A stretch of 64,000 bases of DNA from Escherichia phage slur16. Positions 2,500 through 22,511 of this stretch are shown piece after piece. The notes beneath the pieces are model-generated. The model was not told the origin of the DNA. It saw nothing but the letters and a program-made list of their open reading frames with translations, and searched no databases. Where the stretch lies: the sequence record NC_028248.1, one strand, 5' to 3'. The translations under genes and the position numbers were made by a program. Within the stretch, counting starts at the first letter, position 1; the number at the start of each line of letters is the position of its first letter.

Positions 2500-3216
2500 T
2501 TAGTTAACATCAATAGCACGACCAGACTGGTTGGCAATAGCCTCATCATTGGAGGTAGCAATAACACCAGAGTATTCGCGCTCATCTGGAGCAAGCGTCC
2601 AGGTATTGCGGTTAATGGTTTGTTCTGCCTCAGTCATCAGCAGATCTTTATCCTGAGTCAACAGAGAGCCTACAGGGATCGGGTTTTCCATCTCAGGGCC
2701 AGCATACTGGTTCCACCATGTGGCATCTCCTGTTCTAGGCAATCTGAAGTTGATCAGATAGTACAGTTTATTAGCCCACTTAATCCAACCCTCATCATCA
2801 CAGAGAGAGGTTGTCCCAGAATCAGGCTGTGGGTAGGTGAACTGATCAAGACCTACGAAAGCCAGCCTTACAATCTCGTTCTCTTTGGTAACAACCTCGA
2901 AGAACGCTTGGTATGTTCTCGATCTTCGGTCCATGGTAGACTGGAAGTTTATGATGTTTAGCACATCCGGCTCTTGTCTTGCCACTTCCATGATCTTGTT
3001 ATCAAGAACAGTCTTCATGACCTTCTTGCTGAGAAAGTCCATATAAGGGAAGCCAAACAGCTCGTCAAAGTACCAGCTCCCCTTCCACGTATTAAACCTC
3101 ATCCACAAGCGCTGGCGCAGACTTACCTGGTTTGAATCTATCAACTCAAGACCTTTGTCTATCGCCAAATCGCCTGTCTGTGGGTCCATCAATATATCAC
3201 TATAAAGCGTAGCCAT
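2500..3216 (-). CDS. baseplate structural protein
   Basis: 238 aa ORF in the post-tape-measure baseplate string; position only. Confidence 0.4.
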   Translation of the reverse strand: MATLYSDILMDPQTGDLAIDKGLELIDSNQVSLRQRLWMRFNTWKGSWYFDELFGFPYMDFLSKKVMKTVLDNKIMEVARQEPDVLNIINFQSTMDRRSRTYQAFFEVVTKENEIVRLAFVGLDQFTYPQPDSGTTSLCDDEGWIKWANKLYYLINFRLPRTGDATWWNQYAGPEMENPIPVGSLLTQDKDLLMTEAEQTINRNTWTLAPDEREYSGVIATSNDEAIANQSGRAIDVN

Positions 3217-3228
3217 GAAAGCCCTCTA

Positions 3229-3906
3229 TTAGTGCGGTCCACTTGTCTCGCCATCAGGGCAAGAGTGGGTATGACCTTTATATTCTGCATAGAATGAATC
3301 CAAATCCACGCCAGCAGCAGTTATAATTCTACCAGATGGGTCTATTGTAGCACCATTCATTCTGATATTCCCATCCACAGCAGCTCGCAAATTGGCAGCC
3401 CCGTTAGTGAAAGAAAACTCCCCGCTGCTGTCGCACCGTAATGTCCCACCAGGTGTTTGAAGCTCAAAATCGCCAGAAGGTGTCAGTTTAAAATAAACCC
3501 TATCATTCCATAACTCTACGTTATCAGGATCGATCTGTAAGGCGTTTGAGTCTGAATGAACAGAGGTGATTGCCCACCCCGGAAACAGGCCGTGAGTTTG
3601 TTGATCGTCGTTATTGTTTTCATTTCTCTCTGAAAACTGCAATCCTACAACATCTCCAGCCTTAATAGGGAGTGTTAACCTTGCCTTTCCGCTGTTTGCA
3701 GACATCACCTGAATTGGAACGTCATAGATAAGAGGGTATCTCTCCACATCTCCGTCATCAAACGTAGTTTCAGCTATTGGCTGCACGGCTGCAGAAGGTA
3801 TACTGTAGTCTACACTGACAACTCTGGCCCTGATACTGGTGTGGTAGTCCCTCATTATTTTTTCTATAAAAGATCTTACAGCAGCATCTTTCCTATTTAT
3901 TGCCAT
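3229..3906 (-). CDS. baseplate structural protein
   Basis: 225 aa ORF, stop/start abutting neighbours; position only. Confidence 0.4.
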   Translation of the reverse strand: MAINRKDAAVRSFIEKIMRDYHTSIRARVVSVDYSIPSAAVQPIAETTFDDGDVERYPLIYDVPIQVMSANSGKARLTLPIKAGDVVGLQFSERNENNNDDQQTHGLFPGWAITSVHSDSNALQIDPDNVELWNDRVYFKLTPSGDFELQTPGGTLRCDSSGEFSFTNGAANLRAAVDGNIRMNGATIDPSGRIITAAGVDLDSFYAEYKGHTHSCPDGETSGPH

Positions 3907-17537: not shown

Positions 17538-19094
17538 TTAATTTTCCATGTTGGATATGGAATTATCTCTGGTTGATGACATCTTAGAAGTGCCGTTGCC
17601 AGTGGATCCTGCAGCCATTCCATCACCAGCCCTACTAATGTCCTGGCCCAAGAGCTTCATCAGCTCTTCCTGATCCATGTCCTCGTCAAATCTTTCATCA
17701 AACCCGCCTACTTCAAGAATCTTATTAATTACTGCAGGAGTTTTTGGCAAGTAACCTACAGCACCGATCCTCTGGACAAACTTGGAGAAGCTCTCCATAT
17801 CCACTTCTTCAATCAGACCAGGTTTCAGTTTAGGCATATCATCATCTTCAAGGATGATACCATTCAATGCCAGAAGCTGCGGAATAAGATCTTTATTGAA
17901 GGCCTCAGTGATAATATCTATATCACGCTGAACAAAATGACCATGGATAGACTGTTTTGACTCAGACAGAGAGAAGGACCCAACGTTATCGTTACCGAGG
18001 TTAATAAAGCCAGCACCGAAACGGTCAAGAATCGCCTTCTTACGGGCATCAATCAAATCTTTAGTGGAATACTGCTTACCCATACCGTCAACCCCCTTCA
18101 GGGTCATGGAGTAAAGCTCTTTACCAGACTTATCTCTATCAGACGGAAGTATAAAGAAACTTTGCTCACCACTATGGGCGTTTGCTGCGTCAAGCATAAG
18201 GTCTGCAACCATTCTCCCTTCCATTGAATTCGGGTCAATGCTGGCCTTGTTCAAAATATTGGAAGGAATTTTCAGCTCAAGCACACCACCAAGGTCTTTG
18301 GAACAGCCAACAACCTCAAGGTTTTCAATCAGAACTTTCTCACGGAAAGATCTGTAGCAACCTATCATCGGTGACACACCTGCAGGGTTAGATTCTGTTC
18401 CTGACAGGGTCATGAGCATAAGCTTTTTAGCAGGGATGAAAATTTCAGGCTCATTAAAGCCTTTTGAAGGCATTGCAGCAAGAGGTCCAGCCCAGCGTGC
18501 ATTCTGAGTGTTTAGAAATGCATTAGGTGATTGATAAATACCTGTCAGTGTTCTACTATTCTTGTCAAAGACAAACGGCTCTGATCTGGACAAACTGGCC
18601 TGAGGTCGGAATGCAATTTTATCAATAAGAAGCATCCCGGCATATTTACCTTCTTTCTCTCTGCGGTATACTTTCTCAAACAGTGAAAAACCATACTCGT
18701 TAAAGGTAGCTGCACTTCTTGCAATATCTCGAAGAGTTTGTTGGTTTGCCAAATTACGCAAAGAATACTCTATAAGCTCGGCAGCTTTCTTAGAGTCTTC
18801 ACTTTTAACATTATAAAGGATCTTAAAATCATTAAATGCTTTCGTGATGAAAACATATTTTGTATCTAAGGCAGTAGCAACTGTGGAATCACATTTCATA
18901 GTCTCCACTGTAGCAATCAGCTGAGGCCAACGCAATTCCTCAACCATCATAGATTGCGATTCTGCCATAATTTGGGAAAGTGCGCCAGAACCGATCTCAC
19001 TCATACGAACATTATGAGTTGGTGCGCCTGCGTTCCCAGATTTATTCACAGTTTTGGCTGTGGCGTTGTGTTTCCTGCGGTTCTTTTTGGACAC
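17538..19094 (-). CDS. portal protein
   Basis: 518 aa ORF immediately downstream of terminase large subunit. Confidence 0.7.
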   Translation of the reverse strand: MSKKNRRKHNATAKTVNKSGNAGAPTHNVRMSEIGSGALSQIMAESQSMMVEELRWPQLIATVETMKCDSTVATALDTKYVFITKAFNDFKILYNVKSEDSKKAAELIEYSLRNLANQQTLRDIARSAATFNEYGFSLFEKVYRREKEGKYAGMLLIDKIAFRPQASLSRSEPFVFDKNSRTLTGIYQSPNAFLNTQNARWAGPLAAMPSKGFNEPEIFIPAKKLMLMTLSGTESNPAGVSPMIGCYRSFREKVLIENLEVVGCSKDLGGVLELKIPSNILNKASIDPNSMEGRMVADLMLDAANAHSGEQSFFILPSDRDKSGKELYSMTLKGVDGMGKQYSTKDLIDARKKAILDRFGAGFINLGNDNVGSFSLSESKQSIHGHFVQRDIDIITEAFNKDLIPQLLALNGIILEDDDMPKLKPGLIEEVDMESFSKFVQRIGAVGYLPKTPAVINKILEVGGFDERFDEDMDQEELMKLLGQDISRAGDGMAAGSTGNGTSKMSSTRDNSISNMEN

Positions 19095-19196
19095 AAGCTT
19101 TACCCCTCAAAACAGTATAACAAAATAGCCCTCGTGTTAGAGGGCTAGTATCTCCGATTACTCTATTCTACCACATCTAATTAAGATTGGCAACAC

Positions 19197-20318
19197 TTAG
19201 ATAAAACGCTTGAACATAGAAGGTGATGAGATTGATGGAATCACACAAGGAAGTGCTACTTCCTCTTTCTCCAGGAAATTAATAGCAGAAGCTACACAGT
19301 CAGCCCAGTCGTCTTTTCTGTTAAATGTTGATCTTTCCCCGTTGAATTTTTCAAGTTCAGTCAGAAATGCTTCCAGAGTATCAGGATGGAAACTGGATTT
19401 TACAATCCTCACCATTCCTTGTTGGGCAAGATTGGCAAAAGGTGAGAACCTTGTCAGTTTAGATTTGTTGGAAGGCATTGGGTCTTCTTCAACCCTAAAC
19501 CCTTCGGCAAGCAAGGATCTGGAGGAGGTTAAGAACTCACTCTTACCTGCCTGACCGGGGTCCACAGAGAATACGATTATACAATCATCACCATCAAACT
19601 GCGCCTGTTTCCTGATGATCACATCTCGTTCACCAGCCTTTTTACAGAACTTGCCTTCTAGACCTGTGGAATACCTCCCGTCATCCACGTTCTCAGGACA
19701 ATAATCACCGGACAGGTAATAAAAGCCGTCGCTATCTTTACTTACCTTAACACTGGCGGTAAAGTCAGGAAATTTATTACCGGAAGTTCTCTCGGTTCCT
19801 GCCTTATCCCATGCCCTGCAAGATACTGATCCAAGGGGTACTCTATCGGCATCACGAAGGAAAGATCTTTGAAAATAGTTTGCGCCCTCAGGCTTTGCAA
19901 ACCAGTTACCATGAAGAAGCTGAGCTTTTTCCAGTTCCGGCAGACCTTCAAGGAAAGCAAGGTATTCTGGGTTGTCTCTTAAGCAAACAGGATTATCGAA
20001 TATTGTTGCGCCTATAAACGAGAATGACAACGGTCTTGGCTTGATCTCCACACCAAGTCCGTTAACCGTGGTGTATTTCTCTATCAACTCTTCTTTAGAG
20101 TCCCCCCAGATAAATTCACCGTCGCGTCGGATAAAATATCTTTTCTTACCGCATTTCTCCGGATCTGGATACCCTTCATCGTCCAACCACCACCTAACCA
20201 GTTTGGCAAGCATGTGTTCTGAATCGGGGTTACAGCTGATAACCATTCTTGATGGATACTTTGACTGAGATCGCAGACGAGACATCAGATAGTCTATCTG
20301 CTCCCATTCGAATTGTGT
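19197..20318 (-). CDS. terL: terminase large subunit, exon 2 (nuclease domain)
   Basis: Contains ISCNP coupling motif and acidic nuclease-type C-terminal domain; frame stays open upstream of the ORF-track ATG to ~20321 (TTQFEWEQIDYLMSRL...); 3' splice site approximate. Confidence 0.75.
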   Translation of the reverse strand, partial: TQFEWEQIDYLMSRLRSQSKYPSRMVISCNPDSEHMLAKLVRWWLDDEGYPDPEKCGKKRYFIRRDGEFIWGDSKEELIEKYTTVNGLGVEIKPRPLSFSFIGATIFDNPVCLRDNPEYLAFLEGLPELEKAQLLHGNWFAKPEGANYFQRSFLRDADRVPLGSVSCRAWDKAGTERTSGNKFPDFTASVKVSKDSDGFYYLSGDYCPENVDDGRYSTGLEGKFCKKAGERDVIIRKQAQFDGDDCIIVFSVDPGQAGKSEFLTSSRSLLAEGFRVEEDPMPSNKSKLTRFSPFANLAQQGMVRIVKSSFHPDTLEAFLTELEKFNGERSTFNRKDDWADCVASAINFLEKEEVALPCVIPSISSPSMFKRFI

Positions 20319-20637
20319 CGTTTATGTTCGGGCAAGGTCGCTAGTCTTGCCCCGCCATTTTCAGGCAGCTGCATGTCTCCATGCAGACCAGACTATATCT
20401 TATAAGCGACAACAACCGCTTATCCTCCCGTTTCGAATCGCTTGATTCTACGTCTTTCGACTAGTCGTTGAACGTTCATCCTCTCGGATGCTTCGCTGCG
20501 GATTATCTAAATTAACACACTGTTACCATACCTTCGATCTCTCTTCGAAGCCTCTATCATGTTACCATGACAGGTTGGTGGTATTAATAGTAAAGATTTC
20601 CCCGCAATTAGGGAGGTTTTACGAGAGCTACAAATTA
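20319..20637 (-). mobile_element. group I self-splicing intron (ORF-less) in terL
   Basis: Minus-sense conserved elements in order: P AAUUGCGGGGAA (20609-20598), Q AAUCCGCAGC (20504-20495), R GUUCAACGACUAGUC (20473-20459), S AAGAUAUAGUCUGG (20401-20388); no ORF; splits Walker ATPase from nuclease domain. Confidence 0.8.
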
Positions 20638-21063
20638 ACCCTCATCGAAGCAAACCATGGTGTACTCAAGCCCTTGATGGTTAAGCTTATCTTGTACATA
20701 CTCCATGTGGCAGTATTTTACAACAGCTCCCTTTTTGCTTCTATCCCACTTGCCAGTGTTCGGATCAAACCGTGGAAAAATGAACTTATGATCCTTCTCT
20801 CTGAACTTTGGCTTAATGTTTTCAGGCAGATCACTATAAATAGCTACCGCTTTAGGCCATAGTCCACCCTCACCTTCCAACTGCGGGGTTGTTCTTCGGA
20901 ACATAACCACAGAGCTGTGGGGGTCATCAATAATTTTAAGTGGCATCAATTGCAAGAGGAACGACTTGCCAGACCCTGCGGCACCGCCGATTACCAAAAT
21001 ATCTGCATCGTTTTCGAGGATCATCTTCTGCTTTTCAGAACACGGTCCGTAAATCTTAGACAT
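20638..21063 (-). CDS. terL: terminase large subunit, exon 1 (ATPase domain)
   Basis: Walker A GGAAGSGKS and Walker B-like VCFDE; ORF-track stop at 20635 lies in intron sequence. Confidence 0.8.
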
Positions 21064-21350
21064 TAACCGCTCTCCTTTGGAAACAGTGTTCTAATATAGT
21101 CTTGCAAAATGATCAATTTAGCTCTATCATTGCTACAAGACAGATTATTATCCCTCATAATGCCAGAATTCACTGCATCTGGCGCACCTTTCTTCAAAGG
21201 CATAGCTTTAGCAGGTGGTTTCATGGCACCTTCCGGGGGTTTAACAATCAACCTTCCTACATCCGGAGGGTCAATCTTGTATTCTCTCTCAACGTTGGTT
21301 GCACACCCACATAATAACAAGCACACAATAAACAGTGTAGCAACTCTCAT
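21063..21350 (-). CDS. o-spanin (outer-membrane lipoprotein, Rz1-like)
   Basis: 95 aa; signal peptide with lipobox LLLCGC; Pro-rich mature region; coupled to upstream i-spanin. Confidence 0.65.
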   Translation of the reverse strand: MRVATLFIVCLLLCGCATNVEREYKIDPPDVGRLIVKPPEGAMKPPAKAMPLKKGAPDAVNSGIMRDNNLSCSNDRAKLIILQDYIRTLFPKESG

Positions 21351-22412: not shown

Positions 22413-22511
22413 GGTGCTAGGTGATGGAATCGAACCACCTATGTATTCAACGACTACCTCGTCTATTTTCAGGATTAAAAATCCTCGCCCTTGCCAAAGG
22501 GCTTACCTAGC
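22413..22511 (-). tRNA. aberrant tRNA-like gene (possible pseudo-tRNA; Lys-UUU-like anticodon loop but oversized variable region)
   Basis: Perfect 7 bp acceptor GCUAGGU/ACCUAGC, D-arm GCCC-UUUGGCAA-GGGC and T-arm GGUGG-UUCGAUU-CCAUC, but ~47 nt between D- and T-arms; only CC encoded at 3' end. Confidence 0.3.

Follow-up and report, generated by a model that had tools for sequence, protein, structure and literature searches.

The terminase large subunit gene (terL) in the stretch of DNA analysed here (64 kb, referred to below as the window) is almost certainly interrupted by a self-splicing group I intron (subgroup IA). The element lies at 20319..20637 on the minus strand, carries no homing gene and sits inside a single terL, from whose transcript we infer that it is spliced. 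This assignment is correct but already known, because the intron has been published for phages rV5 (PMC3606486) and LL12 (PMC6658697) and is annotated in phages of the BASEL collection. The sole new point seems to be that the record of phage slur12 lists two terminase CDSs instead of a join.

In the terL region (positions 19000-21200), the window shares 100% identity with Escherichia phage slur12 (LN881735.1), an rV5-like phage of the genus Vequintavirus (species Vequintavirus slur16), and 97-99.9% with more than 110 further rV5-like phages. The gene is encoded on the minus strand, with an i-spanin/o-spanin pair and a tRNA cluster as upstream neighbours on the same strand and the portal gene downstream. 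Exon 1 contains the Walker A motif GAAGSGKS and the Walker B motif (...MVCFDEG) and terminates at 20638 with ...TTC GAT GAG GGT (FDEG). Exon 2 starts with the residues TQFEWEQIDYLMSRL (DNA from 20318: ACA CAA TTC..., that is, TQFEWEQ) and encodes what remains of the ATPase together with the RNaseH-like nuclease domain (Table 1). An earlier note, made from the letters of this DNA, had proposed a group I intron of about 320 bp without an ORF between the Walker region (VCFDEG) and the nuclease part of terL. Its boundaries proved to be exact, the length being 319 nt, and its placement is borne out with the addition that part of the ATPase also resides in exon 2.

The coding strand of the intron contains no ORF of at least 30 aa, stops filling all three frames (ORF list and translation). 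The intron begins with UAAUUUG and ends with ...AUAAACG, and its first three nucleotides form a UAA codon in frame with exon 1. As the length of 319 nt (3x106+1) is not a multiple of three, the frame of exon 2 differs from that of exon 1 in the DNA. The suggestion that the exon 2 frame stays open upstream of the junction holds for only one codon (...*T|TQFEW), in keeping with the string 'TTQFEW' quoted there. Read-through or frameshifting across the spacer was ruled out, all three frames being stopped and exon 2 lying in another frame, as was an intein, the spacer not being an in-frame coding sequence. On the opposite strand, a 124-aa ORF with an ATG start (20488..20862, +) runs antisense to the boundary of exon 1 and the intron. 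It was considered as a homing gene and set aside as probably spurious; it overlaps exon 1 in antisense and extends past the intron.

The upstream tRNA cluster includes a tRNA-like gene of 97-99 nt (22413..22511, minus strand), which ARAGORN reports as 'tRNA-???' with a four-base anticodon (atcc). The Rfam tRNA model gives it 35.5 bits; its anticodon loop reads UUUUUAA (UUU) and its variable region is 26 nt long. It is absent from the six tRNAs listed for rV5.

Table 1. Coordinates of the terL exons, the predicted group I intron and its structural elements, and the second insertion site in the window
Feature	Position	Strand	Description and basis
terL exon 1	20638..21063	-	142 codons; ORF list and translation; aligned with codons 1-142 of phage nom's uninterrupted terL
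ORF-less group I intron, 319 nt, probable subgroup IA, T4 td/nrdB-like	20319..20637	-	RF00028 match; 319-nt gap relative to the intron-less allele
terL exon 2	19197..20318	-	373 codons plus stop; translation, Pfam
P1	20623..20643	-	Helix between the internal guide UAGCUCUC and exon GAGGGU followed by intron UA; cmscan alignment, MFE fold, pair check
P element (J3/4 and 5' strand of P4)	20598..20609	-	AAUUGCGGGGAA; RF00028 alignment, sequence position
Q element (3' strand of P4)	20495..20504	-	AAUCCGCAGC; RF00028 alignment, sequence position
R element (J6/7 and 5' strand of P7, ACGACUA with bulged C)	20459..20473	-	GUUCAACGACUAGUC; alignment, pair check
P7.1 (GUC-GAAA-GAC) and P7.2 (GAAUC-AAGC-GAUUC)	20435..20461	-	Insertion relative to the RF00028 consensus; MFE fold
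P8 hairpin	20402..20423	-	AUAAGCG-GUUGUUGU-CGCUUAU; sequence position, pair check
S element (3' strand of P7)	20388..20401	-	AAGAUAUAGUCUGG; RF00028 alignment, sequence position
P9, P9.1 and P9.2 hairpins (3' peripheral domain)	20330..20386	-	MFE fold; about 82% identical to the 3' end of the T4 td intron
Terminal G (omega-G) at the 3' splice site	20319..20319	-	Translation; alignment to the intron-less allele
Empty site where other Vequintavirus terL genes hold a second group I intron	20001..20002	-	...GCA ACA AT|A TTC GAT..., GATI|FDNP

The junctions were fixed, as the earlier note had recommended, by comparison with an intron-less terL. Alignment of the window with the gene of phage nom (1548 nt) leaves a single gap, which covers precisely 20637..20319 (319 nt). 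By alignment alone this gap may be shifted by 1 nt, the shifted intron ending in C; the junction given in Table 1 is preferred because only this position yields both U at -1 and a terminal G. The conceptually spliced TerL has 515 aa, the same length as the nom protein, and is identical to it at 514 of 515 positions, the single difference being V332I. Pfam assigns residues 25-294 of the spliced protein to Terminase_6N, which crosses the junction at residue 142, and residues 394-489 to Terminase_6C; the split is therefore inside the ATPase domain, directly after Walker B. Taken together, the single gap, the near identity of the proteins and the domain spanning the junction agree with the in-frame ligation that had been proposed. 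An 85-aa peptide that crosses the junction is encoded without interruption in phages nom, ime, ECML-10 and EC22.5-2 (100% identity), in phages of Klebsiella, Salmonella, Rheinheimera and Cronobacter (62-74%) and in Felix O1-like phages (about 47%), and the same search found one terL locus per genome in these relatives. The ligated cDNA is predicted to read ...TTCGATGAGGGT|ACACAATTCGAA... (GAGGGT|ACACAA) across the junction, and the corresponding peptide would be ...MVCFDEGTQFEWEQIDYLMSR.

The Infernal check with the group I model, also named in the earlier note, gave a match to Rfam RF00028 with 84.3 bits (gathering score 50) and E=5.5e-20, covering model positions 1-253 of 253 without truncation. 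It spans 20647..20369 on the minus strand and is the only such match within the 64-kb window. The P, Q, R and S elements named beforehand occur verbatim and in this order on the coding strand. The unconstrained minimum free energy (MFE) fold has -109.3 kcal/mol (z=-5.7 relative to 100 shuffles) and recovers P1, P3, P4, P5 with its extension, P6, P7.1, P7.2, P8, P9, P9.1 and P9.2. The RF00028 alignment concurs with this fold for P1, P3, P4, P5 with its branched extension, P6, P8 and P9; the P5 extension includes a hairpin, P5a, capped by a GNRA loop. When the helices other than P5 were checked by hand pair by pair, all were fully paired. A guessed helix 'P5.1' had an unsupported terminal pair and was not relied on. 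P7, a pseudoknot that is not scored by the covariance model, was likewise verified by hand as ACGACUA/UAGUCU (A-U, bulged C, G-C, A-U, C-G, U-A, A-U), and by analogy the R element would contain the G-C pair that binds guanosine. In P1, the U•G wobble between U(-1) at 20638 and G at intron nucleotide 10 (20628) marks the 5' splice site. P2 is absent in the RF00028 alignment, J1/3 consisting of GUAAAA only, and P10 is by inspection weak (3 bp, ACA/UGU).

The placement of P7.1 and P7.2 between P7 and the 3' strand of P3 is a hallmark of subgroup IA. In BLASTN searches, the T4 td intron matched intron nucleotides 238-316 (the 3' 80 nt) at 82% identity and the T4 nrdB intron matched nucleotides 162-270 at 72-74%; many further phage introns gave weaker matches to the core. 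The T4 td, nrdB and nrdD (sunY) introns belong to subgroup IA2. They share with the window intron the td/nrdB-like core sequence, the layout of P7.1/P7.2 and P9.1/P9.2, and coliphage hosts, but they interrupt genes of nucleotide metabolism, whereas the window intron resides in terL, lacks an ORF and P2, and has another P5 extension. Judged by these similarities, the intron is of subgroup IA and T4-like, with td and nrdB closest; we limit the assignment to this level because P2 is absent.

The proposed mechanism combines features read from the sequence with the established chemistry of group I introns. By its sequence, the terL pre-mRNA adopts a group I core comprising P3-P9 with P7.1/P7.2 and P9.1/P9.2. 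The last bases of exon 1 pair with the guide UAGCUCUC, and the resulting P1 places the U•G wobble at the splice site. Following the group I mechanism, a free guanosine held in P7 should attack after U(-1), the terminal G319 should next fill the same P7 pocket, and the 3'-OH of exon 1 should then attack the 3' splice site and ligate ...GAG GGU to ACA CAA.... The ligated mRNA would be translated into a 515-aa TerL matching the uninterrupted TerL of intron-less relatives. If splicing failed, translation would halt at the UAA of intron nucleotides 1-3, and the unspliced mRNA would yield only a 142-aa fragment ending at Walker B, because UAA follows directly after exon 1 and exon 2 is out of frame. 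It is reasonable to expect that virion packaging should depend on splicing, because the stop codon is immediate, the frame of exon 2 differs and there is one terL locus per genome in relatives.

To survey the distribution of the intron in Vequintavirus, an evenly spaced sample of 60 of 121 matching records was taken, which gave 57 full-length terL loci. These were sorted by length class, and the classes were checked by sequence on 13 loci. Thirty two of the 57 loci have no intron at the first site: 27 lack any intron (1548 nt) and five have only a second intron located further downstream in the gene. The ORF-less form was found in ten loci, in eight of them as the 319-nt intron alone (1867 nt) and in two together with the second intron. 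The remaining 15 loci contain an 883-nt form (extra 564 nt) with an endonuclease VII-type gene, 13 of them alone and two with the second intron. As judged by its presence and absence in these genomes, the intron is a polymorphic mobile element within the genus. By span length, the phages rV5_ev156 (LR694165), with no terL intron, and rV5_ev158 (LR694611), with the first intron and its endonuclease VII-type gene, differ in this respect from rV5 itself (DQ832317), which has an ORF-less first intron and an HNH-bearing second one. About 18 records named 'Campylobacter phage' (MG0656xx, flagged UNVERIFIED, with C. jejuni given as host) contain Vequintavirus genomes that share 97-98% identity with this coliphage, and their host labels look doubtful. 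A 30-mer taken from P7-P7.1 and searched for in the viral contigs of IMG/VR hit only two loci, both of them Vequintavirus copies bearing the endonuclease VII-type gene.

The 883-nt sister allele, present in WalterGehring, 241Ecol014PP, JES2013 and HdK5, shares with the window intron the insertion site, the GGT|ACA flanks and, P8 apart, the ribozyme, but its P8 loop holds a 196-aa ORF with the Pfam domain Endonuclease_7 (PF02945, E=2e-21), annotated in the BASEL genomes as a putative homing endonuclease. Its P8 is another stem of 10+3 bp (GAAUGUGUAAUAC/GUAUUUACACAUUC), with the AUG of the ORF in the 5' strand of this stem and the stop codon inside the S element. The P8 helix is thus maintained by two unrelated sequences, because the 319-nt and 883-nt forms use different stems.

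The exon flanks are linked to the intron. All eight intron-bearing alleles examined have the junction GGT|ACA and all six empty alleles have GGC or GGA followed by ACG; the changes are synonymous. T at -1, the base that the U•G pair of P1 requires, is therefore present in 8/8 intron-bearing and 0/6 empty alleles, the latter having C or A there. This linkage is compatible with co-conversion of the flanks at homing, with selection for splicing, and with a combination of the two. Inside the intron, helix variants mostly keep pairing. The P5a pair C69-G80 is replaced by U-A in rV5; HMD-6 and a single metagenomic copy have U•G there. Further helix changes are G•U to G-C, A-U to G•U and G-C to G•U, while A147 has one U-U mismatch in P5a. 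The tally within the genus is thus one full compensatory change (P5a), several wobble changes and one mismatch, with few informative pairs. Covariation backs the fold only modestly, the support being thin because divergence of the intron within the genus is low (95-100% identity).

These observations also bear on other explanations of the interruption. It is very improbable that the two halves are made as separate polypeptides that form a split terminase, with the spacer retained. The slur12 and HMD-6 records do annotate two CDSs, a stop codon does end exon 1, and early ATG codons are available in exon 2 (at 20285); moreover, PMC7344957 cites non-splicing split genes, namely Aeh1 NrdA (mobE) and one CB7 HNH insertion. 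The spacer, however, is a complete high-scoring ribozyme and not a bare endonuclease insertion, and the break falls within the ATPase fold, right after Walker B. Initiation at the first ATG in the exon 2 frame would lose the conserved TQFEWEQIDYL, and by inspection this ATG has no well-spaced Shine-Dalgarno sequence, GGGAG being 15 nt upstream. The strict association of U at -1 with the presence of the intron also argues against separate polypeptides, as this base has a role only where P1 and splicing have one. That the 319 bp might be an artefact of assembly or annotation, or an insertion other than an intron (a MITE or a promoter island, for example), hardly deserves consideration: the split annotation in the record is all that speaks for it, and the covariance model is matched by the 319 bp. 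An artefact is excluded because an identical or near-identical insertion recurs at the same nucleotide in many independently sequenced phage genomes.

The spacer might instead be a decaying, splicing-impaired relic of an intron whose endonuclease gene has been lost, one that needs a host or phage cofactor or splices so poorly that it limits the supply of TerL. Many group I introns require chaperones in vivo, and the window copy lacks both an ORF and P2, while its P10 is weak. We nevertheless consider such decay unlikely, since the core and the peripheral hairpins are intact and 95-100% conserved in about 60 phage isolates, most helix substitutions preserve pairing, and the intron is carried by viable lytic isolates that have a single terL. 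A functional, self-splicing intron in terL thus remains our preferred interpretation.

Group I introns in terL have been reported across many phage groups, the first of them in Lactobacillus phage LL-H (Mikkonen and Alatossava 1995, as cited in PMC3606486). LL-H is a siphovirus whose host is Gram-positive, and its terL belongs to an unrelated lineage. A close precedent is rV5 of the same genus, whose genome paper (Kropinski et al. 2013, Virol J 10:76, PMC3606486) has a section 'Introns in terminase'. [quoted passage not shown] Shub for help in finding the intron; the rV5 record (DQ832317, ORF64ABC) accordingly annotates a three-piece join. The first intron of rV5 has 319 nt, an identical insertion point and a handful of substitutions, but rV5 also carries a second intron at GATI|FDNP, 979 nt long and bearing an HNH gene; this site is empty in the window. 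Phage LL12 (MH491969; PMC6658697) has a two-piece join of 1867 nt with the ORF-less 319-nt intron, labelled 'intron-containing gene'. In the BASEL phage JohannBauhin (MZ501083; species Vequintavirus slur16), which is 99.9% identical, the join is annotated as well, intron boundaries in that collection having been set through comparative annotation (PMC8594841). Nothing of substance distinguishes LL12 and JohannBauhin from the window; only the slur12 record is without the join.

For a more distant relative, Pectobacterium phage CB7 (Certrevirus, Vequintavirinae), splicing of a terL intron was demonstrated by RT-PCR and cDNA sequencing (PMC7344957). The CB7 element is also a group I intron beside Walker B, in an orthologous terL (51-60% amino acid identity) and with a similar P9-P9.2 domain. 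We considered whether it occupies the same site and ruled this out: the CB7 intron (positions 382-1344 of locus L016) is inserted 6 nt upstream, at VD|EG as against DEG|TQ, and carries an HNH ORF, because of which it scores only 35.2 bits as a whole. The two seem to be related introns whose insertion points are staggered around the Walker B codons.

The second terL site (Table 1) is polymorphic too. Its intron matches RF00028 with 87.5 bits (positions 834-1060 of locus L010 and 1154-1380 of locus L012) and exists as a 268-nt form without an ORF in C7 and A147 and as a 979-nt form with an HNH gene in rV5, PDX and HdK5. The flank reads ACC AT| in occupied alleles and ACA AT| in the window. A group I intron (94.7 bits) was also found at the homologous GATI|FDNP site in the terL of Pseudomonas phage KIL2, which is about 40% identical. 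In KIL2, RF00028 matches at positions 2280-2531 and 3168-3390 of locus L015, an additional match of 68.9 bits overlapping the annotated 3' end of terL, and the TBLASTN alignment to TerL ends at residue 479 of 515, at this 68.9-bit match. This hints at an unannotated second intron in KIL2 terL.

No homing endonuclease gene was detected in the window intron (ORFs of at least 30 aa, coding strand), the endonuclease VII-type ORF being confined to the sister alleles. The ORF-less copy would consequently be unable to home alone, although it could be mobilised in trans during co-infection; as it splits the target site, it should be immune to the sister endonuclease. A more tentative idea, which we regard as possible though doubtful, is that the ORF-less intron may persist by splitting the target of the endonuclease VII-type enzyme and thereby shielding terL in mixed infections, the Walker B codons being a contested hot spot.

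In practical terms, the slur12 record (LN881735) has two separate 'Terminase-like family protein' CDSs, and the records of HMD-6 and 241Ecol014PP likewise annotate the gene as two. The correction is one spliced terL of 515 aa where slur12 and several other Vequintavirus records list two CDSs. Since terL is the standard marker for phylogeny and taxonomy, halves left unspliced distort the resulting trees as well as gene counts. While the intron opens no new question, the genus offers a natural series at one site (empty, with an ORF-less intron, and with an intron bearing an endonuclease VII-type gene) plus a second polymorphic site, and this series could model intron gain, loss and co-conversion in therapeutic coliphages. 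Were the shielding idea true, related IA introns would sit at staggered sites within this hot spot of Vequintavirinae terL, DEG|TQ here and VD|EG in Certrevirus, and the ORF-less copy would confer immunity to the enzyme of co-circulating Vequintaviruses in an intron-mediated interference competition; even then the result would be modest.
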